The notes beneath the pieces were generated by a model that was given only the letters and a program-made list of their open reading frames with translations, had not been told where the DNA came from and did not search any database. Source: Nitrospirota bacterium (GTDB taxonomy: Bacteria; Nitrospirota; Thermodesulfovibrionia; Thermodesulfovibrionales; Dissulfurispiraceae). Taken from it: 64,000 nt of DNA. Made by a program: the position numbers and the translations under genes. Of the stretch, positions 41,649 to 55,004 are shown piece by piece; the first letter of the stretch is position 1; each line of letters opens with the position of its first letter. Location of the stretch: assembly GCA_040758355.1 (NCBI GenBank), contig JBFLWF010000006.1:1-64000 (forward strand), in the 5' to 3' direction.

Positions 41649-43051
41649 TGATGACCTTGATTAACCCGGGCATACTCATTGTTGATGACGAAGATATTGT
41701 AAGGAAGAGCTGCGTCAGGATACTTTCGCCTCAGGGCTATAATCTCGAGACTGCAAAGAATGCGAGCGAGGCCGTGAAGAAACTCCAGAACGAGTCATTT
41801 GATCTCGTGCTCGCAGACCTTGTTATGCCCGATGTAACAGGCATAGACCTTTTGAAAAAAATTAAAGAGGATTGGCCTGAAACAGAGGTGATAATAATTA
41901 CAGGGTATGGAACAGTAAAAACCGCAGTGGATGCCCTCAAATACGGTGTATACGACTTTATAGAGAAGCCCTTCACTCCAGAGGCGCTTTTAAATTCTGT
42001 TGAGCGATGCCTCGAAAAGAAAAAGCTCGAACTCGAAAATATAAGGCTCAGGCAGGAGATCAATGCCCTGTACAGTTTAGACAATATCATAGGCACATCA
42101 AAGGAGATGCAAAAGGTATTTAAGCTCATAGCCACTGTCGCGTCTACAGGCAGCACTGTATTGATAACAGGCGAGAGCGGCACAGGAAAGGAGCTTGTTG
42201 CACGGGCCATACATTACAACAGTGCAAGGAGGGAGCAGCCCTTTATGGTGGTTGACTGCGGCACAATACCCGAAAACCTCATGGAATCCGAATTGTTCGG
42301 ACATACGAAAGGCTCATTCACAGGTGCAATTGCAACAGAAAAAGGAGTTCTCGAGGCAGCCAACGGAGGGACGGTATTTCTTGACGAGATAAGCAATCTT
42401 CCGCTGTCAATGCAGGTGAAGCTTCTGAGGGTATTGCAGGAAAAGGAGTTCAGGCCTGTTGGCAGCAAAAAGACAGTGAAGATCGACATAAGGTTTATCG
42501 CAGCAACTAACAGGGATCTTTCAGAGATGGTTAAAGAAGGGAAATTCAGGGAAGACTTCTTTTACAGGCTGAATGTATTTCCCATCGATATCCCTCATTT
42601 GAGGGACAGAAAAGAAGACATCCCTGCCCTCGCTTACCATTTCCTCCACAAATACAGCAAGGAAGTCGGAAGGGATGTCCCGCACATTTCAGCAGAGGCC
42701 ATGCGCCAGCTCATCGCCAATGACTGGCCTGGCAACGTAAGGGAGCTTGAAAATGTAATCCACAGGGCAGTAATAGTTTGCGAAGGCAGGACTCTCAAGC
42801 CAGAGCATATAATGATACCTCTGAATCGGGAGGAAGAAATAGAAACTCCAAAAACGCTAAAAGAACTGAAATTAAAGAAAAAGGACTTAAGGACAAGGTC
42901 TATAGAGGATATAGAGAAGAGCTTTCTCATTGCCGCGCTTAAGCGTAATGACTGGAATATCACAAAGGCTGCTGCAGAGGTGGGCATGCAGAGGCCGAAT
43001 TTCCATGCGCTGTTAAAGAAATACAATATCTCAAAGGGGAAGGCTGATTAA
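41648..43051 (+). CDS. Sigma54-dependent response regulator (REC-AAA+-Fis HTH, NtrC family)
   Basis: REC, GESGTGKE, ESELFGHTKGSFTGA, FLDEI, WPGNVRELEN, C-terminal HTH. Confidence 0.95.
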   Translation: MMTLINPGILIVDDEDIVRKSCVRILSPQGYNLETAKNASEAVKKLQNESFDLVLADLVMPDVTGIDLLKKIKEDWPETEVIIITGYGTVKTAVDALKYGVYDFIEKPFTPEALLNSVERCLEKKKLELENIRLRQEINALYSLDNIIGTSKEMQKVFKLIATVASTGSTVLITGESGTGKELVARAIHYNSARREQPFMVVDCGTIPENLMESELFGHTKGSFTGAIATEKGVLEAANGGTVFLDEISNLPLSMQVKLLRVLQEKEFRPVGSKKTVKIDIRFIAATNRDLSEMVKEGKFREDFFYRLNVFPIDIPHLRDRKEDIPALAYHFLHKYSKEVGRDVPHISAEAMRQLIANDWPGNVRELENVIHRAVIVCEGRTLKPEHIMIPLNREEEIETPKTLKELKLKKKDLRTRSIEDIEKSFLIAALKRNDWNITKAAAEVGMQRPNFHALLKKYNISKGKAD

Positions 43052-43069
43052 ACCATAATCCGTAAACAT

Positions 43070-43122
43070 GGATAGCAGGTATGCGCTCAAAGCCGTCCCT
43101 CTTTTCGGCGCACCTGCTATCC
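43070..43122 (-). repeat. Structured hairpin element, copy 3
   Basis: Minus strand GGATAGCAGGTGCGCC-GA-AAAG-agggacgg-CTTT-GA-GCGCATACCTGCTATCC. Confidence 0.65.
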
Positions 43123-43134
43123 TGCATTAGTGAG

Positions 43135-43323
43135 ATGACAAAAATCGATTGTTTTAAATGCAAACACTTCTATATCACATGGGACAAAGGCTTTCCTTAT
43201 GGATGCAAGGCAATGGGATTCAAGACAAAAAACATGCCCTCTGATGTCGTCTATCAATCTTCGGGAATGGAGTGTTTGAAATACGAGGAAAAGGACAAAA
43301 ATCCTAAAAATATCATCAGATAA
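43135..43323 (+). CDS. Small 4-Cys conserved hypothetical protein (family often loosely annotated as uracil-DNA glycosylase)
   Basis: CFKCKHFYITWD...PYGCKAMGFK...SG.EC pattern; too short to be a UDG. Confidence 0.7.
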   Translation: MTKIDCFKCKHFYITWDKGFPYGCKAMGFKTKNMPSDVVYQSSGMECLKYEEKDKNPKNIIR

Positions 43324-43402
43324 ACCGCCTAAGCGAGGGGATACAAAACTTCTTCCTGCTTGTGTCGCCAATGAGGACAGCACAAAACTTAGCAGGTGGC
43401 AG
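43317..43402 (-). pseudogene. Fragment of the DNA-methylase gene joined to the GCGGTTTATCTG end repeat
   Basis: Translates KFCAVLIGDTSRKKFCIP, matching KHCAVLIGDTRRNKFYIP of ORF 46359-46685. Confidence 0.75.
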
Positions 43403-43449
43403 ATTATAAATCTGTGGTATAATTTAATAAAAATGAAGGGTGGATTCCA

Positions 43450-43740
43450 CTGCCAATCATAATTGATGATATAATATGGCTGGATACCATAGTTGAGAAG
43501 ATTGCATGGAAACACGGCGTACTTCCACATGAGGTTGAAGAAGTGTTATCCGGCAATTTCAGGATGTTTAAAAGAGAAAGCGGAAAGGTTGAAGGAGAGG
43601 ATCTTTATAATGCCCTCGGCATAACCGAAGGCGGACGATATCTCTCAATATTTTTTATAAGGAAACTAAATAACAAGGCCCTGATCATAACTGCAAGAGA
43701 TATGAACAAAAGGGAGAAAAGAAGATATGAAAAAAAGTAA
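43450..43740 (+). CDS. BrnT-family toxin (DUF497); probable CTG start
   Basis: IIW...VEKIAWKHGVLPHEVEEV...G.TEGGRYL...IITARDM..RE.RRY; the frame is open back to TAA at 43420. Confidence 0.8.
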   Translation: MPIIIDDIIWLDTIVEKIAWKHGVLPHEVEEVLSGNFRMFKRESGKVEGEDLYNALGITEGGRYLSIFFIRKLNNKALIITARDMNKREKRRYEKK

Positions 43741-43966
43741 ATACAGAGAGATGACAATAGCAGAGGCAAGCGACTATTTCAACGAGCATGATATATTTGA
43801 GTTTGAAGATGTAAAGGAAGTCTCTGATGTCAAATTCAAGTTGCATAAGAAAAAATATATTGGGGTTGACATAGACCTTTTTAAGAAAATTAAAAGTAAA
43901 GCAAAAAAACTCCATAAAAGCGAAGACCTGCTTATAAAAGAATGGCTTATTGAAAAAGTCGGGTAA
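43727..43966 (+). CDS. Cognate antitoxin (BrnA/CopG-like)
   Basis: EASDYFNEHD N-terminus, RHH-like C-terminus, overlaps the toxin stop. Confidence 0.72.
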   Translation: MKKSKYREMTIAEASDYFNEHDIFEFEDVKEVSDVKFKLHKKKYIGVDIDLFKKIKSKAKKLHKSEDLLIKEWLIEKVG

Positions 43967-43979
43967 GACTTTTTCAATA
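43948..43979. terminator. 13-bp perfect hairpin at the end of the antitoxin gene, between convergent TA operons
   Basis: TATTGAAAAAGTC-gggtaa-GACTTTTTCAATA. Confidence 0.55.
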
Positions 43980-44039
43980 CCTTAAAAAATCCTTCCCGAT
44001 TTGTCTTTTGCAGTTTTGTTCTTTCGCCCCTTCCATGCT

Positions 44040-44080
44040 TTTTTGAAACACAAAAATATGCTCATTAAAAGGAGGGGAAA
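44040..44080 (-). pseudogene. Short degenerate fragment of the DNA-methylase C-terminus
   Basis: Reads ...LLLM/EHIFVFQK, matching FLLIMHEHIFVFYK of 46359-46685. Confidence 0.55.
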
Positions 44081-44090
44081 AGCATTAGGA

Positions 44091-44444
44091 TTAGTAAAAC
44101 TCTTGTAAAAATCTCAGTTGATTATCAATTTCTCCATCTTTGGTAACAGCAAGCAATTTGAGAGTTAGCCTTATTAGCTCTGCAATTTTTATTTCAGGAG
44201 ATATGATAATTCCTTTGTGGCGTTTGCCTTCTTCGAGCCATGTCCTATGCAGTTTTGTGAAATCGCCAATATTAAAAGTGAGTATGGCTCTGCCCTGAGA
44301 GGCTGTAAATACAAGTTGTTCTAAATCATTTTTGCCAAGCATGCCCGCATCTCTCGCAGACAAGACATCATAATTGTATTGCTTCAATATTAAGGTGAGG
44401 TCAACAGGGATCATTTCATCGAGATAAAGCTTAATAGCAGCCAT
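44091..44444 (-). CDS. DUF5615-family PIN-like toxin
   Basis: LYLDEM, D..QL, RAILTFNIGDF, H.GII. Confidence 0.85.
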   Translation of the reverse strand: MAAIKLYLDEMIPVDLTLILKQYNYDVLSARDAGMLGKNDLEQLVFTASQGRAILTFNIGDFTKLHRTWLEEGKRHKGIIISPEIKIAELIRLTLKLLAVTKDGEIDNQLRFLQEFY

Positions 44445-44842
44445 CAGTCATATTTTTCAGGAAGGGTTTCCCATGTATATGTCTTTTCTTTTTCATCGTC
44501 CGATAGTTTTTCAAATTCTTCTTCCGTTATAAGCCGGTCAATCCCGTATTCGCCTACAACCAATCGCATATTAGATCTTTTCATAATCGCTCTGAGTGTA
44601 TTTTCCTGAATTTCCTGTTCAATCTCATTCTTATGATCAAAGTAATAGCTGATGGCGTCATGGATCTGCGCAAATGTAAGATGAGGGTATCCCATAAGAA
44701 TATCTTCCGCAGAGTTTCCGCTTTTCACCATAGAAGCGATTAAGCGCACTGTAATCCTTGTGCCGGATATAACAGGCGAACCGCCGCAGATTTCCGGATT
44801 CTTGATAATGTAAGGATGTTCGGTCTTTAATTCTGTAGGCAT
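44444..44842 (-). CDS. DUF433-family antitoxin with C-terminal extension
   Basis: PEICGGSPVISGTRITV...YPHLT.AQIHDAISYY; AGGAGG RBS. Confidence 0.88.
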   Translation of the reverse strand: MPTELKTEHPYIIKNPEICGGSPVISGTRITVRLIASMVKSGNSAEDILMGYPHLTFAQIHDAISYYFDHKNEIEQEIQENTLRAIMKRSNMRLVVGEYGIDRLITEEEFEKLSDDEKEKTYTWETLPEKYD

Positions 44843-44900
44843 TGCGGACTTCCTCCTAAGCAAATAATATCAAAATCGCTCTGAAAGATGCAATTTATAT

Positions 44901-45062
44901 TCACAGATAAACCGCCCTGCCGACTTCTCTGGCAATAAGATTGTCGAATTTATAGTTCTTAAGCCACTGAGATTCCCGTTTCAGATTTTTGAATGCATCC
45001 GCCGCATCTGTGCCTTCGGCGATGCCGATGACAACGGCATCTTCAGTTGAATGGAGTTCAGA
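44901..45062 (-). pseudogene. 53-codon 3' gene fragment ending AVYL* (repeat unit)
   Basis: SELHSTEDAVVIGIAEGTDAADAFKNLKRESQWLKNYKFDNLIAREVGRAVYL*, no start codon; begins right after the hicA stop. Confidence 0.7.
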
Positions 45063-45302
45063 TTACTTTTTGAGAAATTTTTGAAATTCCTCTGGAGACA
45101 ATTCAATATCGCGAAGGATTTTTCTTAGAAGCCCTCGACCAATGGTCTTCCCTTTATGAACGGGGACTGTTGTTTTCCTTCCATCAGGGTGGGTATATCT
45201 GAAGTGACTGCCTTTGGACTTTCTCGTATTCTTGAAGCCAAGCCTTTCAAGAATCCTTATAATTTCTTTGGAAGGCAGTATTGGAAGTCCGCCTTCAGTC
45301 AA
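45063..45302 (-). CDS. hicA: HicA-family toxin
   Basis: LERLGF...KGSH...HPDGRKTTVPVH...GLLRKIL. Confidence 0.9.
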   Translation of the reverse strand: MTEGGLPILPSKEIIRILERLGFKNTRKSKGSHFRYTHPDGRKTTVPVHKGKTIGRGLLRKILRDIELSPEEFQKFLKK

Positions 45303-45532
45303 ACTGCAACCTCAAGGCTTTTAATGCCTATTACTTCAGGATATTTTAAACTGATTTTTTTCTTTCTTTCCTTAAGTTCTTCAATGCACATGGCAATCAC
45401 ATCTTTTATATTTTCTATTGCCTCTTCAAAGGTCTCTCCCTGTGCATAGCAGCCCTGAAGTGCAGGGCATTCAGCAACATAGACGCCATCTTCATCTTGC
45501 TCGATAATTACCTGAAGATTATATTTCTTCAA
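45299..45532 (-). CDS. hicB: HicB-family antitoxin (TTG start)
   Basis: IEQDEDGVYVAECPALQGCYAQGETFEEAIENIKDVI; GGGGAGG RBS. Confidence 0.88.
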   Translation of the reverse strand: MKKYNLQVIIEQDEDGVYVAECPALQGCYAQGETFEEAIENIKDVIAMCIEELKERKKKISLKYPEVIGIKSLEVAV

Positions 45533-45582
45533 TTTTAACACCTCCCCTGTTAAGTCTATGAACATTATACACCTAAAGCCGT

Positions 45583-45693
45583 TTACAGATAAACCGCCCC
45601 GCCTGCTTTTCTGGCAGCAAGGTTGTCGAACCGTTTCAGATTTCTGAACGCATCCTTTGCATTTCTGCCTTCGGCAATGCCGATAATTACGAC
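45583..45693 (-). pseudogene. Second diverged copy of the AVYL* gene-end fragment (27-nt in-frame deletion)
   Basis: VVIIGIAEGRNAKDAFRNLKRFDNLAARKAGGAVYL*. Confidence 0.7.
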
Positions 45694-46238
45694 TTTTTGA
45701 GATGAATAATAGGCTCAAGTTTAGGAAGCAGGAAATATTTTCCAGCCAGTTTGTAGACTTTGCGAATATCGGCCTTCTTTGAAAGCTCTTTAATATCAAT
45801 AATGTCCTGACTGCTTAACGGCAGGAGTTTCAGTAAGATAAGGTATTCAGGGGTAGCGACTTTAATGCTCTTTCCCAGAACATCGGCAACAACCGCATTT
45901 TTTATCGCATCAGCCGCCAAATCAAATCCGCCCGTGCCTATAATATCAACCTGAATCTGACCTGACATGAAAGAAAATTTCTCCTGTATCGTCATTCGCG
46001 GCGTTGCTTTATGGACAGATACCTTTTTCTGCAGTCTTGTCTGGATAAGAGAGATCAGGTCTACCCAGTTTATCTTTTTTGAGATTATAACAACCAGATC
46101 AACATCCCTCGTGGTGCGCGGACGCACCCATGCCGAAAGCGCAAGCCCGCCAATAAGCGCATAATCTTCGACAATGCCTTCATTCTTCAGCTCATCGAAA
46201 AAGGAAATGGTTTTTATAAAGGCTTCGATTATAGACAT
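45687..46238 (-). CDS. Nucleotidyltransferase-superfamily protein (AbiEii/DUF6036-like)
   Basis: YALIGGLAL...PRTTRDVDL, VDI, ATPEYLILLKL...QD..DI. Confidence 0.82.
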   Translation of the reverse strand: MSIIEAFIKTISFFDELKNEGIVEDYALIGGLALSAWVRPRTTRDVDLVVIISKKINWVDLISLIQTRLQKKVSVHKATPRMTIQEKFSFMSGQIQVDIIGTGGFDLAADAIKNAVVADVLGKSIKVATPEYLILLKLLPLSSQDIIDIKELSKKADIRKVYKLAGKYFLLPKLEPIIHLKKS

Positions 46239-46351
46239 TACTTTTTCTTTCCTGCTTTATGAACCGACTTCTTGATTATTAAGGAAAGTTCGAGCAGTTC
46301 GAGGGCGATTTCTATGTTTTTGCCGTTCGGTTTTAAAGGCTTCTTTTTCAT
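46238..46351 (-). CDS. 37-aa basic peptide translationally coupled to the nucleotidyltransferase
   Basis: MKKKPLKPNGKNIEIALELLELSLIIKKSVHKAGKKK*; TAATG overlap with the next gene. Confidence 0.55.
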   Translation of the reverse strand: MKKKPLKPNGKNIEIALELLELSLIIKKSVHKAGKKK

Positions 46352-46358
46352 GCTTGAA

Positions 46359-46685
46359 TTATACACCTAAAGCCGTTTGCAGATAAACCGCAGGGCCTGC
46401 CTCTGTAGGTTTTCGTGGCTTGTAAAAAACAAAAATGTGCTCGTGCATTATGAGGAGAAAGTTGTACTCCTTTGATTTTTTGACCCAAAAACCTGTTGCC
46501 CTGCAATTGTGCTGAACCTTGATGATGTCTTCTTTGAGGACGAATCCAGCCTTTAAAAAGCGCTCCATGACGTTATACGCAAGGGGAATATAGAATTTGT
46601 TCCGCCTCGTATCGCCGATAAGAACAGCGCAATGTTTGCCGGGCTTTAAAACCCTGAAACATTTAGGATAGATTATTTTTGACAA
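46359..46685 (-). pseudogene. C-terminal fragment of an N4/N6 DNA methyltransferase, reading into the AVYL repeat
   Basis: FRVLKPGKHCAVLIGD...GFVLKEDIIKVQHN...HEHIFVF; lacks the SAM-binding and (D/N/S)PPY motifs. Confidence 0.75.
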
Positions 46686-46712
46686 TTCTAATAAAATACA
46701 TCAGGTGAACTC

Positions 46713-47165
46713 ATGAAGAAGATATTAACCCTCGCTGATCAGATCAACAAACGAATTTGGTGGCATTCTCCACCATCAGACAAAAACGCTTACAAAAAAA
46801 GAGGTATGTTCCTGTCTTCGTCATATAAGGAATGCGAATTTTATGGCCGCCCTCTTGATGAACCAATTAGGGTAAAAGTGTCTAAACCGTTAGTAGACAC
46901 TGAACGAAATGTAATTAGATTTTTCTTTGGTAATGATTCTCCACAGATGCTTACCTTAAATGCCTTAATGAATGGCACCTCAAGAAGCCCGGTAAAGGCA
47001 AGATTTAAATTAGATGCGGATTTATTTGAAGCAGCTAAGAAAAACAAATATGATGCCATTGCAATAATCCCAGAAAAGGGTCTTGAAAAAATAAAAAATC
47101 ACAAACTTCCAAGAAGTGTAGAGTTGAACGTAATTGATTTCGAGAATGGAATTGATAAAGTATGA
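46713..47165 (+). CDS. Hypothetical protein, possible ADP-ribosyltransferase fold
   Basis: 150-aa ORF with ATGA overlap to the MTase; WWH...GMFLS....EFYG...KPL...YDAI...E.NV pattern. Confidence 0.6.
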   Translation: MKKILTLADQINKRIWWHSPPSDKNAYKKRGMFLSSSYKECEFYGRPLDEPIRVKVSKPLVDTERNVIRFFFGNDSPQMLTLNALMNGTSRSPVKARFKLDADLFEAAKKNKYDAIAIIPEKGLEKIKNHKLPRSVELNVIDFENGIDKV

Positions 47166-48103
47166 AAGGCACTACACATAAAATTAAAAGCGAAAAAAAG
47201 TGGTCTATAATATACAAGTACACAGAAAGCCCAATTGAATTTTACATTTCAGAAGAAACAGTCACTTATGGCGACAACGGCAAGAAAAAGCCTTTCTCCA
47301 TTTACTACGACAACCCTGCACATTCAGTGAGACTTCTCAAAGGCGATTGCATAGAGATATTGAATCAGGCCAGGGAAAACAGTGTTGATATGATTTTTGC
47401 CGACCCGCCTTATTTTCTTTCTAATGGAGGCATCACTTGCCATGCGGGAAAGATGGTATCTGTTAATAAAGGCAAGTGGGATAAATCCAAAGGTGTGGCA
47501 GAAAATCATAAATTTACTCTCGAATGGCTCAAGGCTTGTCAGCGCGTCCTAAAGCCAAATGGAACAATATGGGTTTCGGGAACAACACATATCATTTACT
47601 CGGTCGGCTTTGCAATGCAGGAGCTTGGATATAAAATCCTTAATGACATTATCTGGTACAAGCGCAACGCTCCACCAAATCTCTCATGCAGATATTTCAC
47701 ACATTCAACAGAGATAGTTTTATGGGCTGCCAAAAATGAAAAAAGCAAACATTACTTTGATTATCATCTTATGAAGAAAATGAATCAAGGTAAGCAGATG
47801 CGTAATGTGTGGGAAATCTCAGCACCGCCAGCAGAGGAAAAGAAGTTCGGAAAACATCCAACTCAAAAACCTGTGGAGCTTTTGAAAAGAATTATCCTTG
47901 CATCTACAAAAGGGGACGATTTAGTGCTTGATCCCTTCTGTGGCAGTTCAACAACCGGCGTTGCAGCGGTCTTATTAAATCGGAAGTATGTAGGGATTGA
48001 TTTGGAGGATGAATATCTTGCTGTCTCTGTAAAGCGATTGAAAGAAGCAATTGTGAAAAAAGAACATAAGCTATTTGAGCATAAAGAGGCAGTAACACGA
48101 TGA
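47162..48103 (+). CDS. N6-adenine DNA methyltransferase, beta class (DpnA/M2.MboI-like)
   Basis: ADPPYFLSNGG...SVNKGKWD, HPTQKP, LDPFCGSSTTG. Confidence 0.92.
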   Translation: MKGTTHKIKSEKKWSIIYKYTESPIEFYISEETVTYGDNGKKKPFSIYYDNPAHSVRLLKGDCIEILNQARENSVDMIFADPPYFLSNGGITCHAGKMVSVNKGKWDKSKGVAENHKFTLEWLKACQRVLKPNGTIWVSGTTHIIYSVGFAMQELGYKILNDIIWYKRNAPPNLSCRYFTHSTEIVLWAAKNEKSKHYFDYHLMKKMNQGKQMRNVWEISAPPAEEKKFGKHPTQKPVELLKRIILASTKGDDLVLDPFCGSSTTGVAAVLLNRKYVGIDLEDEYLAVSVKRLKEAIVKKEHKLFEHKEAVTR

Positions 48104-49026
48104 AATATTCCCCAATATTTAAAAATAAGATAGGTTGTAAGAATGAAAGCGAAGTATTTGCTTATCTGATCAATAATCTTAATGATTCCATCAGATACTG
48201 GGACTATTTTGTGAACTGGAAAAAGGTTCTCGGTAACACGCGAGAGTTGGAGGTAGATTTGAATATTATGAACTACCTGATCGGCAAGGAAGATATTGAG
48301 AAAGAATTTGGTTGTCTTTTAAAAAAGCATCCTCAGATTTTAAGATTAGTTCCTGTGCTTCTTGCATGTAGAGAACATAAGTTTAAAATCCTCACAGATC
48401 TTTCTGAGGGGAATCTCAAGTATGATGATTTTTCATTTGAGGAAAAGAGAAACCTTTCCGATGCTGAAATTTCAAAAGTTGTCCGTTTTGCGCAAAAAAG
48501 TGGCTTGTTAAAAATATTCAAAGACAAAACCGTTAAGAATGTTGTTGATTACACAATTGGGATTGAGGTTGGGCTTGACAGTAATGGGCGTAAAAACCGA
48601 GGCGGTACTGCTATGGAGAAAGTTATCGAATCTTATATTAAAGTAATATGCAAAATGCATGGCTTCAGATATATGAAACAGGCGACTTCTGAAAAGGTGT
48701 CTTCAGAATGGGGACTGAAACTTAGTGTTGACAAATCAAGTAGACGATTCGATTTTGCAGTATACAATGGCAAGAAGCTTTATCTCATAGAAGCCAATTA
48801 CTATGGCGGTGGAGGCTCTAAACTTAAATCTACAGCAGGCGAATATAAAGCTCTATATGATTTTGTCTCTAAGGACGGTCATAAATTTATCTGGATTACC
48901 GATGGCTTGGGATGGAAGACTACCAGTAGGCCTTTAGAGGAAACTTTTAATCATATCGAGTATCTTTTGAATTTAAAAATGCTTACTGAAGGTATCTTAG
49001 ATGGGATTGTTGTAAATAACCTCTAA
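48100..49026 (+). CDS. Type II restriction endonuclease, DpnII/MboI family (GATC)
   Basis: DYFVNWKKV, GIEVGLDSNGRKNRGG, RFDF...IEANYYGGGGSKL, FIWITDG.GW. Confidence 0.92.
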   Translation: MKYSPIFKNKIGCKNESEVFAYLINNLNDSIRYWDYFVNWKKVLGNTRELEVDLNIMNYLIGKEDIEKEFGCLLKKHPQILRLVPVLLACREHKFKILTDLSEGNLKYDDFSFEEKRNLSDAEISKVVRFAQKSGLLKIFKDKTVKNVVDYTIGIEVGLDSNGRKNRGGTAMEKVIESYIKVICKMHGFRYMKQATSEKVSSEWGLKLSVDKSSRRFDFAVYNGKKLYLIEANYYGGGGSKLKSTAGEYKALYDFVSKDGHKFIWITDGLGWKTTSRPLEETFNHIEYLLNLKMLTEGILDGIVVNNL

Positions 49027-49064
49027 AGGGACAACAAAAATTGTACTCTGAATTTTTTAAGTCT

Positions 49065-49316
49065 CTATACTTCTATAGGCCATATAGGAGTAAAAGAATT
49101 GTTCGTCTCTTCAACTGATATTATGTTTTTGACCTCAAATTTACGCGTCCCCTTTTTCATTATGTCATAACAATAAAAGAATTCACTCCCTCTCTCAAAT
49201 CTGTAACTGTATGGTTCGGCTTCTCGAGTTTCAATAGAACCATCTTTCTCCTTAGCTGTTAATAGAATGGTATGAAGATTTTTACCAGCAGATGAAATAA
49301 TATCTTTAATTGTCAT
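49065..49316 (-). CDS. Stand-alone WYL-like domain protein
   Basis: REAEPYSYR...FYCYD...RKF....I.SV...F.P.WPIE pattern; GGAGG RBS. Confidence 0.6.
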   Translation of the reverse strand: MTIKDIISSAGKNLHTILLTAKEKDGSIETREAEPYSYRFERGSEFFYCYDIMKKGTRKFEVKNIISVEETNNSFTPIWPIEV

Positions 49317-49404
49317 TGCATACCCTCCACTGAAAAAATATTCTTAAAATAATAATCATTCTTTTTTGTCTACCCCCTACCAAAATTCAGGGTGCGACCT
49401 ATCT

Positions 49405-51318
49405 TCAGACATCTGGTAATATTCTTTTGCAGAGATCTTCTAATAGAACACATTTCTTGCCCTTCTCCCAGAGATGCTGAAGAGTAGCCACTATAACCAT
49501 TTCGTTTTTCTTTTTATTGGATATATCATTATAGCCGTAAAGCGCTACCATTTCAGCTTGTGCTTTATCCCAGACGTCATGCCCGATCTCATCTCGAACT
49601 GAATCCCTTATATTAGTACCCCACATTACCACATTTGTACCAAAATATCCGCCAGCCGACAACGGATCAACATCAGATGCTGAACATAAGTTGAGAATAC
49701 ATCTATTATCACGGCTATTGTCCTTCTTAACACAGTCCTTTGCATTCTTATCAGAATCACCATCAAAAATTACAAAATAGGGAATAGAGAGTTCCTTAGC
49801 TATAGCAAGTGGTCTGCTCATACTAGTCTTTCCACCGCATATAATGAAATGTCCGCCGCGCCGCTTAAACTCCATCATTCGCCCCAATAGTTCAATGTAT
49901 GTCGATATAAAAGCAACGTCCTCAATACCCTCTACTAATACTGCTAATCCGCTGAAATAAAGTTCGTTTAAAGAAGGTTGCATTATCTGTTGGATCATTG
50001 CCATGCAACTAGACGGCGGTGCGGGACTTTCACCTAAAGCAGCGGCAATGCAATTACTTAGCTTTTCTAATGTCAGATGAGATGCGGTGGAACAATCATC
50101 ATCGTCTTTCCATCGAACTAATCTTATATTTTCTACTCCTTTCCCAGATACAAAATATGGGCTGTGGGTAGTCACAACAACTTGAGCATTTTCCATGTCT
50201 TCAAGAAGTTTTGCCAAGTGCCGGGCCTGCGGAGGATGTTGATAGACTTCAGGCTCCTCAAACCCCAGAAGGAGCATAGGAACTTTTTCCTGTTTACTCT
50301 TTGCCAACATCTGTAATACTGAAACAATAAAAGCACGCTGTAACCCATGCCCCATTCTTCGTATATCACCAAGAAACTGCTTTTCGCCCACCTCTGCCTT
50401 AGCTAACGGCGGATCGACTTTAAATTTGCTTGGATCGAAATTCCAAGATAGTTTTACTCTGGCATCAGGATGAGTCCATTCCTGTAAAAGGCTTTGGAGC
50501 GAAGCCGAAACATCCTCTAATACATGATCTTGCTCACGAAGTATTGCTTCGTACTTTGTTCGTACTTCTTCCTTTAGGGGAATGAGATAGTCTGCAAAAT
50601 TGACACGCGACCTTATAGTTCGCTCAAGCAATTTGCCGAATGCTGTATTCTTAGATTCTTCTTGCTCGCTGGCTGCATCTTTTACAGCAGGAATGTACAC
50701 CCATTGCAGAAAGGGATCTAGTTTCCCTGATCCTTGGAATCCGAAAAATTGATCTTCGCTATCAATAAGTTCACACAATTCTGGGTGCTGGTCTTCATAA
50801 GCTCGGAGTGCTTCAAGCTTATCGTCCTTAGATTTCGGATTTGGAAGGTCTGGATACCTTTCGCGATATCCGTTATAAAGTTGCGTTAACAGGGCGGCAC
50901 TTTGACCTGCTTTATATGCCTCAAAAAATGGCCTAAATTCACCCATTCCCAGTCTTGCACCGAATTGCCTAACTTCTGCGGTTCTTTTTTCTTCATTCCA
51001 GACAGCTTTAGCAGTAAATATAAGTTTTTCGTTTCGTACATAGTGTTGCAAACTCTCTTTAGCTTCGGGTGTCAATTCGCCGAAAGTTGCCCTGATTTCT
51101 ATCGGGTCAGTGGTATTTCGATTGTGGAAATCCTCTTCTATTAATATCTGTACATCGGTTGTTACATCGGTCTTATTTCGGAATAAAACGTTTAAAGCCA
51201 TAAGGACTGTTGATTTGCCAGCGCCGTTTGGGCCTACAAGAGAGGTATACTTGCCAAAGTGGATGGTTGAGTCTTTAAATCCCCTATAGTTCTTAATCTC
51301 TAAAGTTTCAAGCTGCAT
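49405..51318 (-). CDS. OLD-family ATP-dependent nuclease (ABC ATPase + TOPRIM)
   Basis: IKNYRG, Walker A GPNGAGKST, GHGLQR, EEPEVYQHP, TTHSP, TOPRIM VEG.ED and DGD. Confidence 0.9.
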   Translation of the reverse strand: MQLETLEIKNYRGFKDSTIHFGKYTSLVGPNGAGKSTVLMALNVLFRNKTDVTTDVQILIEEDFHNRNTTDPIEIRATFGELTPEAKESLQHYVRNEKLIFTAKAVWNEEKRTAEVRQFGARLGMGEFRPFFEAYKAGQSAALLTQLYNGYRERYPDLPNPKSKDDKLEALRAYEDQHPELCELIDSEDQFFGFQGSGKLDPFLQWVYIPAVKDAASEQEESKNTAFGKLLERTIRSRVNFADYLIPLKEEVRTKYEAILREQDHVLEDVSASLQSLLQEWTHPDARVKLSWNFDPSKFKVDPPLAKAEVGEKQFLGDIRRMGHGLQRAFIVSVLQMLAKSKQEKVPMLLLGFEEPEVYQHPPQARHLAKLLEDMENAQVVVTTHSPYFVSGKGVENIRLVRWKDDDDCSTASHLTLEKLSNCIAAALGESPAPPSSCMAMIQQIMQPSLNELYFSGLAVLVEGIEDVAFISTYIELLGRMMEFKRRGGHFIICGGKTSMSRPLAIAKELSIPYFVIFDGDSDKNAKDCVKKDNSRDNRCILNLCSASDVDPLSAGGYFGTNVVMWGTNIRDSVRDEIGHDVWDKAQAEMVALYGYNDISNKKKNEMVIVATLQHLWEKGKKCVLLEDLCKRILPDV

Positions 51319-51488
51319 TCTTCCTCCTAATACGAGCTTTACTTAATAAGATATAGAGGCAACTTGTATATTATCCATGGGGCGCAGGCTTATTTTTCGA
51401 TCACTTTTTTCTGTCAGCAATCCATTTTTTGACAGTCCTGTCTTATTTCTGCCGCATTATAAATGAGAAAATGGAATTTTTTCAATAT

Positions 51489-51519
51489 AAAAACAGGACA
51501 TTTCTATTTTGGCTTGACA
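51489..51519 (-). mobile_element. Isolated IS terminal inverted repeat (IS481/IS1202-like)
   Basis: Reverse complement TGTCAAGCCAAAATAGAAATGTCCTGTTTTT: TGT terminus plus AAATGTCC motif. No transposase and no second end seen. Confidence 0.5.
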
Positions 51520-51696
51520 TCACAAAAACAAGGCGGAGATTTATCTTTAGGCGAGGCATATTCTTTTGATAGACGCCTTCAAGTGCTACATCCAGATAAC
51601 AAGCACATCCGCCCCAAAATCTGTCAGCAGTTGCAGATTCTGAGGGATAAAGGCATTCTGGAATTCAAAGGACAAGGGAAATATCAATTCAAATAA
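51520..51696 (+). pseudogene. DpnI-type (Dam-replacing) C-terminal winged-helix domain remnant
   Basis: L.EAYSF...L..LHPDNKHIRPKICQQLQILRDKGILEF.G.GKY; truncated at the IS end. Confidence 0.8.
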
Positions 51697-51811
51697 CTTA
51701 GCCCTCGCCCCGCCCCAAAATCCGCTCTATGAGTCGTTGACTCCACTCTATGAGCCGTTGGCTCAACGAGCCATAGGCGAGTCAGAGACCGGCAGCTTTA
51801 AATATAATTTT

Positions 51812-51834
51812 TTGTTATAATTGTGTTATAACAC
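51812..51834 (+). promoter_or_regulatory. Extended -10 (TGTTATAAT) plus perfect palindrome GTGTTATAACAC, likely TA autoregulatory operator
   Basis: Directly upstream of the GGAGG RBS of the AbrB-like antitoxin. Confidence 0.5.
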
Positions 51835-51849
51835 TGCACGGAGGTTTCG

Positions 51850-52098
51850 ATGCACAGGAAATTATGTTCCATAGGCAACAGTCAGGGAATATCAATTCCG
51901 CTGGATATGCTCGAAAGACTCAATCTGTCTGTAGGCTCTGAAGTGGATGTCAAGCTTGACGAAGCTGAATCAAGAATTATCATAGAGCCGGTAATGAAAA
52001 AAAAATATCCCAGGGGCATTGACAGGGAATTTGTCTCTCAGGTTAATGATTTTATCGGAAAGTACAAACCTGCGCTAAAAGAACTCGCAAAGAAGTGA
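51850..52098 (+). CDS. AbrB/MazE-family antitoxin
   Basis: RKL.SIGNSQGISIP...L.LSVGSEV; C-terminal KYKPALKELAK. Confidence 0.87.
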   Translation: MHRKLCSIGNSQGISIPLDMLERLNLSVGSEVDVKLDEAESRIIIEPVMKKKYPRGIDREFVSQVNDFIGKYKPALKELAKK

Positions 52099-52484
52099 AA
52101 TATCTTTTAGTAGAGCAGGTTCTTTTTATTCACAGCAGGCTTATAGATGAGACAGGCGGCTCGCACGGAGTCAGGGATTTGGGGCTTCTTCAGGCTGCGG
52201 TATCGAGGCCGAAGGCGACTTTCGGGGGCAAAGACCTCTATCTTGATATTTTTCACAAGGCAGCGTCCCTCATGGAATCGCTTATAAAAAACCATCCTTT
52301 TATTGACGGCAACAAAAGAACCGCAATAACATCTGTCGGTATTTTTTTGCAAAGAAACGGCTGGTTATTGGAAACTTCACAAAAGGAGCTTGAGAGATTT
52401 GTGATTTCCGTGGCTGCAGGCAATGCCTCTTTTGATGATATTGTTAAGTGGTTTAAGCAGTATTCCTCAAAAGCAAAAATATAG
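52095..52484 (+). CDS. doc: Death-on-curing (Doc/Fic) family toxin
   Basis: GVRD.GLL.AA..RP, HPFIDGNKRTA; GTGA overlap. Confidence 0.9.
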   Translation: MKYLLVEQVLFIHSRLIDETGGSHGVRDLGLLQAAVSRPKATFGGKDLYLDIFHKAASLMESLIKNHPFIDGNKRTAITSVGIFLQRNGWLLETSQKELERFVISVAAGNASFDDIVKWFKQYSSKAKI

Positions 52485-52625
52485 ACACATCCGCCCCCCA
52501 AAATCCGCTCGAAGCGAGTCTCGCGAAGAGTCGCACCGACCAGCAGCTTCAAATCCTCCGAGACAAAGGCATACTGTCCACGACTCGCAGAGGAGTTTAA
52601 ATGGGAAGGGGAGGTACGGGATTTT

Positions 52626-52919
52626 TTAAGGATGGGGTGTAATGGCTATAATAGTTATCTCTTTGTTTCCGGGACCATAATGCCAAAATATTCTATACGC
52701 GGCAGGGGTGGACTGCTCTGCATATGCCTCAAATACTTTTTCTCCTTTTGGACCTTTTAACGAAGTAAATTCATGGGTTTGCAGTCCGGGATGTCTTGGG
52801 TTTTGAGATAAAAATTGAATTGTCTTTTTTACTGCGTTATATCGTTTGGCAAGACCTTTGTCTGTCTTGAGCCGGTTTAACTGTTCTTTAGCCTCATCGG
52901 TCAGGAGTATATCGAACAA
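52626..52919 (-). CDS. RelE/ParE-like toxin (TTG start)
   Basis: NPRHPGLQTHE...FEAY......AYRIFWHYGP...ITIIAITPHP. Confidence 0.7.
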   Translation of the reverse strand: MFDILLTDEAKEQLNRLKTDKGLAKRYNAVKKTIQFLSQNPRHPGLQTHEFTSLKGPKGEKVFEAYAEQSTPAAYRIFWHYGPGNKEITIIAITPHP

Positions 52920-52928
52920 GAGAGATTC

Positions 52929-53177
52929 CTATAATTCATTGAGATTGAGTTTTGAAATCCTGCCTTCAGATGCGTCTTTCAGCCCTTTGTGAACGCTTTT
53001 AAGAGCTTCTTTATTTTTATAAAGCCATCTTTCGGGAAGCGGAATAGTTTCCAAAAGGGTTTCTAACCTGTCAAGCTCGTCCATAGCAATAACAGCAGCC
53101 ACTTTGTGCCCTCTTTTATCTGTTAAATACTGCTTAATTTTAATAAGTTCGCTTTCGCTCTTTAAGGTTGCCGGCAT
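52929..53177 (-). CDS. Putative cognate antitoxin
   Basis: E.WLYKNKEAL.SV.KGL.DA..GR C-terminus; 9 nt upstream of the toxin; AGGAGG RBS. Confidence 0.65.
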   Translation of the reverse strand: MPATLKSESELIKIKQYLTDKRGHKVAAVIAMDELDRLETLLETIPLPERWLYKNKEALKSVHKGLKDASEGRISKLNLNEL

Positions 53178-53286
53178 ATATCCTCCTTTGAAGCCTGTTG
53201 CTAAAATAAATTATAACATAATAACAAACACATCCACCCCCAAAATCCGCCGGCAGCGGTTTTTAATATGCCAATGGTCGTGAGAA

Positions 53287-53478
53287 CTACACCTGTGCGG
53301 TTTTTAATTCTCCTGAATGGGGACGTTTTCTGTTCGGACAGTATATCACGGGGCAGGACTCGCAGCTTTCAGCAGAGTCTATCTCAAAGCCGAAGGGGAT
53401 CAATTCTCCGCAGTCGCATTGCCAGCCTTCTGGGGTATGTTTTGATAATGCATTATCACAAAAAGGACATTTAAGCAT
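53287..53478 (-). CDS. Small Cys-rich hypothetical protein (possible zinc ribbon)
   Basis: CPFC, CDCG, CESC...YC in 63 aa. Confidence 0.55.
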   Translation of the reverse strand: MLKCPFCDNALSKHTPEGWQCDCGELIPFGFEIDSAESCESCPVIYCPNRKRPHSGELKTAQV

Positions 53479-53554
53479 ATGTCTAATTTAAGTATAGAAC
53501 CGGGGAAAATATTTTTTTATGACGTGTATCATATGGATGCACACCCCTGTGTAT

Positions 53555-54370
53555 TTATCCCTTCCTTGAATCCTCAAGGTTACGAACAATCTCTGCGCCT
53601 ATGAGGAATATGCAGGATGAATAGAAGACCCACAGGAGGAATATCACAAAGGCCGAGAGGGGTCCGTATATGGTTCCTAATTTCGCAACCTTTACTACAT
53701 AGAGGGTGAAGGTGTGCTTTGCTGCTTCAAGAAGGATTGCTGTAAATAACGCCCCTGATAATGCGCAGCTGAGTCTTATCCTTTTTTTCGGGAGGAAGAT
53801 GTAGAGCGTGGCTGCGGTCAGGAATACCAGTATCAATGGCACGACAAATTTTATTACAAAGCCTGTTATCTTCCCAATCTTTACATCCGGGAAAAATTCC
53901 TGAAGTGTCTTAAGCATCGAGATTGCAGCTGTTGCGCCAAAGGAGGCAAGGATAAAGGCAATTATCAGGGTGATGATGAATAGAGAGAGGACAATGGAGA
54001 TTATAAAATGTCTCTTAGCCTTTGTCTTGAATATCACATTTGTTGCTGTTTCAAGTGATGAAAAAAGCTGGTAGGACAATACGGCATAGAGGATTACTGT
54101 AAACTGCCCTATTCCTTTGTAGGATATTATCTTTTTCAGTTCGTTGGTTATCTCGTGTGTGATCTTTGGAAAGAAACCCACGAGTTTTGCTGAAAAGAAT
54201 CTGAGCAGTTCTTCATTGCCGCCGAGGAAATGTCCGAATATTGTCACGAGGAGGAGGCAGAAGGGGACGATTGCCATCATGGTGAAGTATGATATTGAGC
54301 CTGCAAGCATGAGCCCGCCGTCCCTGAAGAAGTCCACGAAGCTTCTGAGTATTGCCTTTACATATCGCAT
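53555..54370 (-). CDS. YihY/virulence factor BrkB family membrane protein
   Basis: LAGSISYF, multiple TM helices, YGPLSAFVIFLLWVFYS...LIGAE. Confidence 0.9.
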   Translation of the reverse strand: MRYVKAILRSFVDFFRDGGLMLAGSISYFTMMAIVPFCLLLVTIFGHFLGGNEELLRFFSAKLVGFFPKITHEITNELKKIISYKGIGQFTVILYAVLSYQLFSSLETATNVIFKTKAKRHFIISIVLSLFIITLIIAFILASFGATAAISMLKTLQEFFPDVKIGKITGFVIKFVVPLILVFLTAATLYIFLPKKRIRLSCALSGALFTAILLEAAKHTFTLYVVKVAKLGTIYGPLSAFVIFLLWVFYSSCIFLIGAEIVRNLEDSRKG

Positions 54371-54430
54371 TTATGCTCAATTATAACAGAATCGATTGCT
54401 GGCAGTGCGTAAGCATGGTATTATTTTAGT

Positions 54431-54943
54431 ATGAAAAGGATTTTATATATATCGGCTGTTTTATGCATTGTCTTATTCTCTTGCGCCACAGGCAATTATC
54501 TGAAGACAGAAGGTGCAAAGGATGCGGATATCAAAGGTTCTTTCACCCTCATACTTTACGGCAGCAGGCATTTAAATGATATTGAGACCATAGCAATTCT
54601 TGACATTGAAGGAGACAGCTACAGCTTTGAGCCGTATGCACCTGAATTTGACTATAAGATAAAAAAGGGTATTCCTGCTAAAGAGGCACTGGAGGAAGCA
54701 GAGAGGTTTGTAAGCTGGCACAGCTCATTCCATTACTCACAATTAAGCAGGATTCTTGATGATAAAGGCAATGTCATCGGGTATGAGATTAGACCGCTTT
54801 ACCGGCCTCTTGCCTTTGGTGCTTCGGATGTCCTCGATGTCGATTACAGGATTAAAGACAGCAGGGTAATCGTGAGAATAAGGCTCAAGCCGCAGATCGA
54901 AAGGATGCTCTTTGACGGAGACAAATCAAAAGAGGATAATTAG
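54431..54943 (+). CDS. Hypothetical lipoprotein
   Basis: Signal peptide with LFSC lipobox. Confidence 0.65.
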   Translation: MKRILYISAVLCIVLFSCATGNYLKTEGAKDADIKGSFTLILYGSRHLNDIETIAILDIEGDSYSFEPYAPEFDYKIKKGIPAKEALEEAERFVSWHSSFHYSQLSRILDDKGNVIGYEIRPLYRPLAFGASDVLDVDYRIKDSRVIVRIRLKPQIERMLFDGDKSKEDN

Positions 54944-55004
54944 TTATATCCAAAACATAGCTATTCACTCCAGAGACCTATCCGTATCGCTGGATTTATT
55001 ATAC

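Follow-up and report, generated by a model that had tools for sequence, protein, structure and literature searches.

Repeated gene ends bound a two-armed array of toxin-antitoxin modules across the Thermodesulfovibrionia

Background

How chromosomal toxin-antitoxin (TA) pairs arrive and cluster without mobile elements is presented as an open question in a report on the TA islets of Photorhabdus (PMC13617665). Here we examine a 64,000-nucleotide stretch of DNA, contig C6 (the window), from the 2.77-Mb genome of a Nitrospirota bacterium of the family Dissulfurispiraceae, in which six two-gene TA-type modules and a defence core lie between a small conserved gene (43114-43323) and yihY (53555-54370), with repeated 3' pieces of genes, which we call pads, at the junctions.

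By analogy, the closest precedent is the model of the orphan immunity arrays of the Vibrio cholerae type VI secretion system (T6SS), for which serial addition of two-gene toxin modules without an integrase, by homology-facilitated illegitimate recombination, is proposed in PMC5361080. Our locus resembles those arrays, and the C-terminal displacement of Rhs and contact-dependent inhibition (CDI) genes as cited in the same paper, in that older parts shift outward and copies come from different strains; the copies within one array here stem from different donors, as in arrays built by homology-facilitated illegitimate recombination. The Vibrio arrays, in that paper's description, are anchored on a live effector gene at fixed clusters and lose old effectors, whereas here whole stand-alone TA pairs are kept. 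Also unlike the Vibrio arrays, this one has restriction-modification (R-M) gene ends at every junction (joined in the left arm by the end of another gene, see below) and two arms growing in opposite directions, and its modules are common to different genera at different chromosomal sites.

Recombination at repeats has been described for related cases. As characterised in PMC2853133, R-M genes can insert with long target duplications, the repeats exceeding 30 bp, varying in length and often spanning a stop codon; such insertions carry no mobility gene and are found mostly in competent species. There the R-M genes are the cargo of single events, whereas here R-M gene ends are the target, used time after time for TA cargo. 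A supporting mechanism would be unequal crossing-over at repeats driven by transformation, as treated in PMC3784515. The Photorhabdus islets are, like our array, compact TA clusters without mobile elements for which spread by homologous recombination is suggested; it is proposed to occur at flanking core genes, and internal repeated pads do not figure in that description of the islets (PMC13617665). Our locus also recalls the pneumococcal cassettes portrayed in PMC3812788, where DpnI and DpnII-type systems alternate at one locus in a transformable host. As in the long-target-duplication cases, direct repeats of more than 30 bp flank a HicBA pair in another locus (L103) with no mobility gene, and sites empty of a single module appear as pad-to-pad skips in environmental runs and relatives; a whole-island empty site was found only as a scar.

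Chromosomal integrons with TA cassettes are arrays of minimal modules with attC hairpins, attI and a linked IntI. Our array shares with them minimal modules, stops abutting the repeat, variable order and an apparent age gradient, but it has no attC hairpin, attI or linked IntI, its repeats are ends of coding genes and its joints are imprecise. An earlier note on this DNA, made from the letters alone, had called the array integron-like; this holds for the layout and fails for attC, hairpin and linked recombinase. The array resembles, in how it works, a cassette array anchored by homology; it does not belong to the integron family. Modules of the pdif (Xer) type carry XerC/XerD 11-6-11 sites at their ends; one leader class here has an XerD-like stretch doubling as a -10 box and no XerC arm (judged by eye only, without a host dif reference). 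We know of no TA arms or repeated gene ends at the pneumococcal DpnI/DpnII locus.

Results and discussion

Structure of the array

The repeat-bounded TA array is real, class-wide and apparently undescribed; a literature search that took in few subscription papers and no supplements gave no account of TA arrays on R-M gene ends. All six two-gene pairs of the earlier note were confirmed at their positions: BrnT/CopG-type BrnA, DUF433/DUF5615, HicB/HicA, a 37-aa peptide with an AbiEii-like nucleotidyltransferase (NTase), AbrB/Fic-Doc, and a RelB-like protein with a 97-aa partner. Pfam supports BrnT, DUF433, DUF5615, HicA, HicB, the AbiEii-like NTase, AbrB/MazE and Fic; the CopG-type and RelB-like matches fall below cut-off, and the 97-aa RelE-like protein, with no Pfam or NCBIfam match, is labelled from its size and context. 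The four stop codons said to abut or overlap a fragment do so (hicA -16, NTase -4, doc -4 and RelE-like -3 nt). Across all mapped islands, module-end stops lie at most 10 nt from a pad in 25 of 61 cases and at most 30 nt in 39 of 61, a few of these rows not being true last genes. The features of the locus are as follows.

43114..43323, forward strand: anchor, a small Cys-rich conserved chromosomal gene forming the left flank; its last codons overlap the left end of the island
43317..43423, reverse strand: outermost left pad, AF_1447-like gene end fused to an internal piece of the parent methylase (methylase profile 530-598)
43450..43966, forward strand: module 1, BrnT toxin (PF04365) and CopG-type antitoxin (43727-43966; PF12441 below cut-off)
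44041..44080, reverse strand: degraded methylase C-terminal piece, weak blastn match to the intact parent (E 0.29)
44091..44842, reverse strand: module 2, DUF433 (44444-44842) and DUF5615 (44091-44444)
44901..45078, reverse strand: left pad, AF_1447-like 3' part overlapping the hicA stop (profile positions 60-237; Atlas PF27350, score 0.93)
45063..45532, reverse strand: module 3, HicB (45299-45532) and HicA (45063-45302)
45564..45708, reverse strand: left pad, internally deleted AF_1447-like 3' end with a TATAAT-bearing leader common to module 4
45687..46351, reverse strand: module 4, 37-aa peptide (46238-46351) and AbiEii-like nucleotidyltransferase (45687-46238; PF08843)
46359..46685, reverse strand: innermost left pad, parent methylase 3' third with the shared left core at its end (PF01555; 84% to the intact parent in L103)
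46713..51318, no single strand: exchangeable core with a 150-aa gene, methylase, DpnII, WYL-like gene and OLD-family nuclease
51536..51696, forward strand: innermost right pad, dpnI 3' end with stop (PF17726; profile 43-202)
51709..51800, forward strand: additional incomplete right pad, palindromic insert after the 16-bp core
51850..52484, forward strand: module 5, AbrB/MazE antitoxin and Fic/Doc toxin
52481..52628, forward strand: right pad, dpnI 3' end with hairpin inserts, abutting the doc and RelE-like stops
52626..53177, reverse strand: module 6, RelB-like gene (52929-53177; PF18506 below cut-off) and 97-aa RelE-like gene
53220..53258, forward strand: outermost right pad, little beyond the 16-bp core, fused to the leader of module 6
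53555..54370, reverse strand: yihY/BrkB gene (PF03631), right chromosomal flank

The left repeats share a common core, CAGATAAACCGC, at 43317, 44904, 45586 and 46380, and this 12-mer has one further match in the genome, on contig C37 with unrelated flanks. They had been read as one DNA-methylase segment; methylase-linked pieces are indeed present, but two genes supply the pads. The methylase pads come from the 3' third of the gene (43331-43423, 44041-44080, 46403-46685), the degraded piece at 44041..44080 having clearer counterparts in L017 and L029, and the others (44901-45078 and 45583-45708) are the 3' end of an AF_1447-like 78-aa gene that is not an R-M gene and is intact in 6 genomes; a protein database search with the AF_1447-like fragment gave no match, which is weak evidence. 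An att model in which the left repeat is a copied 3' end of the anchor gene was rejected, the identical end occurring at sites without that gene. BrnT probably starts at CTG 43450, and the BrnT/CopG-type pair also lies between methylase fragments in G318 and G528.

The right repeats, with common core CCCCAAAATC(C/T)G at 51612, 51713, 52496 and 53238, have no core match in the genome outside the island and are 3' pieces of dpnI; the 77-aa open reading frame (ORF) at 51463-51696 is a chimera containing the dpnI 3' end. Tiny palindromic inserts directly follow the dpnI core or occupy a second position within the pad (51725-51795 and 52509-52540 here; also L117, L124, L134 and L140), and words related to them are scattered through the genome; we take them to be possibly repetitive extragenic palindromic (REP)-like elements. 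The leader at 53183-53258 matches L017 7313-7387, with the same promoter and ribosome-binding leader ahead of the RelB-like pair here and of HicB there. This same leader ahead of different TA pairs across genomes points to ORFs swapped at the start codon.

Variation at the locus

At the same junctions, modules differ in identity, number and order among four genomes of the genus, the metagenomic locus L029 and the environmental runs, as the earlier note had anticipated. The left arm of G002 holds DUF433/DUF5615 and HicBA, its core and the three TA pairs of its right arm being others than here, and the left arm of G001 holds a HEPN/MNT pair and a four-helix-bundle gene. In L019 (4057-4545) a four-helix-bundle gene lies between short-repeat arrays, inserted right after a methylase fragment. 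G004 has the NTase pair only, flanked by copies near-identical over ~105 bp, and L029 has the order HicBA, NTase, DUF433/DUF5615, against DUF433/DUF5615, HicBA, NTase here. In G003 the anchor leads directly to yihY with no island, as in L046, which is perhaps not independent; yihY immediately adjoins the anchor gene in G024 as well. The intact parent gene expected at the empty locus was not there, and G003 has only a degenerate scar of the left end; since this site keeps a degenerate left core that is missing in other genera, we regard it as a scar rather than a pristine site.

The environmental evidence comes from four (X1, X2, X3 and X6) of 22 listed runs. Run X1, from a strain ~99% alike, independently rebuilds both arms (43065-45583, 45554-46535, 46506-48015 and 51753-54979), which excludes the assembly artefact named earlier as a way the array could be dismissed. 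Pad-to-pad joints in run contigs skip single modules (43325->44074 in X6, bypassing module 1; 44956->46410; 45627->46406; 51696/51697->52496 in X2, X3 and X6, bypassing module 5; 52545->53555), and the joint 46448->44081 reverses module order. As run contigs stem from mixed communities, they show other arrays, not events within one clone. An excised circle was considered for the back-joint 53236->52495 and set aside; a different module order, as in G002, explains the joint equally.

Distribution across the class

Intact parent genes exist, in other genomes: an intact divergent methylase/dpnI pair occurs in L103, L117, L119, L149, L150, L170 and L177. After the intact dpnI of L103 come HicBA, a 90-bp copy of that gene's 3' end (89%), another TA pair and a third copy. 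The two-armed layout recurs across the Thermodesulfovibrionia at many chromosomal sites, with 22 flank labels among the mapped loci; for many labels a single side was seen, and 22 may therefore exceed the real number of sites. Both flanks were seen for anchor-yihY, mgsA-greA, rpmA-cls, tRNA synthetase-Yip1, ribH-hydrolase, gyrB-gyrA, paaK-aroF and pgk-DUF3187. Twelve loci were excluded from the counts as duplicates, distant DpnI/methylase homologues or weak matches. DpnI_C matches occur in 9 of 68 genomes of the family and 32 of 401 of the phylum, and methylase DNA matches in 44 of 301 genomes of the class, mostly through the 3' third. As a control, the family of G581 has a DpnI_C match in 8 of 53 genomes, one each, none of them a short fragment starting at the core. 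Named records that show the dpnI pattern belong mostly to Nitrospirota, Thermodesulfovibrionia among them (of 17 rows, 15 are not Selenomonas and one is an archaeal bin), and the array-bearing bacteria are an aquifer and sediment group. A lone dpnI 3' end lies between gyrB and gyrA (L139 8600-8686) and is most simply the scar of a lost island.

Modules travel with their pads

The earlier note had proposed that the fragments serve as landing pads, and modules do move with the fragment of their own arm between islands at different chromosomal sites, as predicted. Among TA protein clusters (at least 70% identity, at least 2 genomes; 45 genome labels, two of them one contig), 39 of 41 keep to one arm, against a mean of 13.8 in label shuffles of which 0 of 10,000 reached 39, a permutation that overstates the case since the genomes are related and the genes of one pair are not independent. 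As 28 of the 41 clusters occur at two or more flank labels, flank homology cannot have moved them. The NTase of module 4 is found in 7 genomes at 4 flank labels, in the left arm every time, and module 6 in 5-6 genomes at 4-5 flank labels, always in the right arm. Each of the two ends of one dpnI pad goes with a module of its own: the joint at the RelE-like stop is identical in 5 loci, where the upstream side of the pad has several different partners, and for one leader class with 9 dpnI pads the downstream partners differ.

The fragments themselves differ mainly at third codon positions, by 0.45 for methylase (n=23; 0.15/0.05 at the other positions, 67% synonymous) and 0.42 for dpnI (n=32; 0.19/0.12, 58% synonymous), with a neutral expectation for the synonymous share of ~24%. 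They thus diverge like coding alleles, which makes them ends of many donor genes and not local duplicates. The nearest relative lies outside the fragment's own island for 7 of 10 methylase and 14 of 18 dpnI fragments. Most reach or near the stop (30/38 methylase, 15/18 AF_1447-like, 34/47 dpnI), and several module stops coincide with a TAA in the parent sequence, the comparison being with the parent and not with the pre-capture donors. We rejected translated mini-genes, an in-frame ATG/GTG within 23 codons being present in just 5 of 49. Preservation falls from the inner to the outer pad in 11 of 12 islands, or in 12 of 16 when four further judged islands are added.

Proposed mechanism

Starting from what is observed, namely the layout, its variable content and order, the arm fidelity across sites and the origin of the fragments from many alleles, we consider it fairly probable that the arrays grow during natural transformation, through homology-anchored addition of the RecA type and unequal exchange, and that TA addiction tips the balance from loss to addition. 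The island would descend from a divergent methylase/dpnI pair whose 3' ends became portable homology arms. Incoming DNA, probably taken up by natural transformation and carrying a gene 3' end and a TA module, would pair through RecA with a resident gene end or fragment; the far end would join illegitimately at the left edge of the paired stretch, which would insert the module and displace the old gene end outward, making it a new pad. [quoted passage not shown] An existing fragment would pair only from its own 5' boundary; each round would thus copy this boundary, and the sharp start of the dpnI pads would be accounted for. Ordinary or unequal crossovers between pads would then remove modules, change their order and export them, events that add a module with no resident one lost would be favoured by TA addiction, a deletion bias would trim spacers to stop codons and promoters, and the core would be swapped separately from the arms. 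The competence gene comEC is present in this genome and in 5 of 5 others tested, and DprA in this one (genes alone).

Several points weigh against this proposal, as does the overstatement of the permutation given above. The data are sequences, and we observed neither a recombination event nor competence nor a circle. From simple homology a less sharply defined dpnI 5' boundary would be expected, and the 40-70 nt upstream of the core are also well conserved between intact alleles; the limit of homology was therefore rejected as sole cause of that boundary. The 16-mer often survives alone where the remaining pad is gone, the pads are 70-90% alike over ~90 bp, which is short for RecA, and 3 of 16 islands contradict the inner-to-outer gradient. 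The arrival of islands at new chromosomal sites is not explained by the model, and homology-facilitated illegitimate recombination is rare according to PMC5361080. In favour of the proposal, synonymous divergence in 8 intact dpnI alleles is 0.42-0.62 around the core and 0.9-0.98, near saturation, after it, as if the tails had been exchanged there; among the 30-nt windows of the intact alleles the one that holds the core is the most conserved (0.86), and another low-divergence window lies at codons 179-183.

A possible but doubtful alternative is that an enzyme in trans (a site-specific recombinase, HUH nickase or restriction nuclease) cuts or recombines beside TCCGCCCCAAAATCCG, the right arm being a cassette site carved from dpnI. 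It would fit the left joints, which fall 0-13 nt before TCCGCCCCAAAATCCG in 39 of 46 core-bearing dpnI fragments and in 26 of 30 upstream-partner classes, the small palindromic inserts right after the core in many copies, the persistence of the core in the most decayed pads, and the 6 tyrosine recombinase matches in the genome. However, the 46 copies were selected by motif (after removal of the intact genes, of two matches probably due to chance and of one copy at a contig end), and in the profile-based set 33 of 47 dpnI 5' ends fall at profile positions 97-118; the joints are not base-precise (0-39 nt); and the left arm has no such site, the 5' ends scattering over 486-722 for 38 methylase fragments and over 18-188 for 18 AF_1447-like ones. 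Nor do the pads share a conserved structure: fold tests of 10 pads gave z -2.1 to +1.4, against -3.9/-3.2 for the host's attC-like site, 25 dpnI ends yielded no consensus pairs, and Rfam gave no match, so we set aside an attC-like or RNA structure. A RYYYAAC..GTTRRRY scan gave 0 matches and has little weight, since it would also miss the control. The 6- and 8-mers of the core are not over-represented in the genome, which likewise speaks against an uptake-sequence or Chi-like role. The enzyme stays in contention on two grounds, the sharpness of the dpnI boundary and the fact that the 16-mer can persist bare. We give similarly low credence to class-wide cassette exchange by a trans-acting enzyme at the 16-bp dpnI site and a left-arm counterpart, also seeding islands at new positions. 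If true, the trans-enzyme explanation would be a new kind of cassette system, with recombination sites recruited from restriction-gene coding sequence.

Searches for such machinery bear on this alternative and on the next. The earlier note's statement that the island has no integrase or transposase ORF stands for the island, but the host genome carries an integron integrase: a canonical one on contig C3 (L199, 122521-123477), with cassettes and an attC-like hairpin quite different in form. IntI was not found in 2 of 5 array-bearing genomes (G002 and G018), one of them 100% complete, and a resolvase is absent from this genome. No tyrosine recombinase was matched by tblastn in 81 loci (735 kb), and no integrase or transposase family by Pfam among 214 ORF representatives (one long flanking gene left out); as many loci end at contig breaks, the absence of an integrase-bearing element reads as not found. 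A phage or plasmid carrier was also discounted, with 0 matches in viral contigs (strict pattern) and none in plasmids.

Less likely still is that larger elements bearing an integrase accumulated in tandem at a single att site and that each was later worn down to its addictive module and its termini, as in cis-mobilizable elements (CIMEs). Repeated gene 3' ends are typical of att duplications, and the outermost pad, against the chromosomal flank, is usually the most decayed. A step-by-step streamlining of TA loci is also among the proposals in PMC13617665. Against this, no integrase or remnant turned up in any mapped island in the searches above, no such element in viral contigs or plasmids, the boundaries are not fixed, and two unrelated arms would require two systems. 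Local tandem duplication and decay in a defence island with random landing of TA pairs, or an assembly artefact, is largely refuted already and seems to us most improbable: near-identical copies in a few islands (G004, ~105 bp; L106, 96%; L107, 94-95%) show that recent local duplication occurs, yet fragment divergence is of coding type, the nearest relatives lie outside the island, modules keep to their arms, module order changes, and independent assemblies and runs agree.

The exchangeable core and neighbouring sequence

The core here consists of a 150-aa gene without family match (46713-47165), a methylase (47162-48103), DpnII (48100-49026), a WYL-like gene (49065-49316) and an OLD-family nuclease (49405-51318). 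Run X1 carries another core (joint 48015->51710), and the cores of other islands vary freely, with DpnII, MutH-like, PD-(D/E)XK, AccI/Eco57I, AIPR, NERD and other proteins. Truncation of dpnI here is as expected on arrival of a GATC-methylating DpnII-type core. In the whole genome GATC is halved (observed/expected 0.48) and CTAG almost absent (0.02). Runs X2, X3 and X6 share an identical 752-bp deletion, with 8 shared letters, that removes the 5' part of the OLD nuclease gene (50565-51318). A recurrent core pair of ParB-like 485-aa and radical-SAM-like 366-aa proteins (L132 9309-11860; L133, L173 and L176) is a candidate DNA-modification defence module; the shared 366-aa protein was considered as a recombinase and rejected, being radical-SAM-like in appearance.

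The anchor gene is present in 16 of 41 genomes searched, among them four other genomes of the genus, and its last 7 codons vary within the genus. Beside the island, a Cys-rich 63-aa gene without family match (53287-53478) occurs at this place in G002 and not in G001, G003 or G004. A 45-bp dispersed repeat at 43050-43094, unrelated to the pads, is found also on contigs C2, C7, C47 and C28 and is missing from relatives at this place. A promoter scan added little (36 sites against 25.7 +/- 4.4).

Conclusions

Homology-anchored addition at gene ends would offer a concrete route for the arrival of TA pairs, in which a portable ~90-bp stretch from the end of a widely shared gene serves for docking. 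With such a stretch, modules can cross genus boundaries and land in the recipient's island regardless of flanking genes. As pads mark positions of capture, pairs of genes of no known type that lie between pads are candidate new TA or defence systems. The arrays also suggest that recombination can make use of the short R-M 'pseudogenes' of defence islands as functional substrates.

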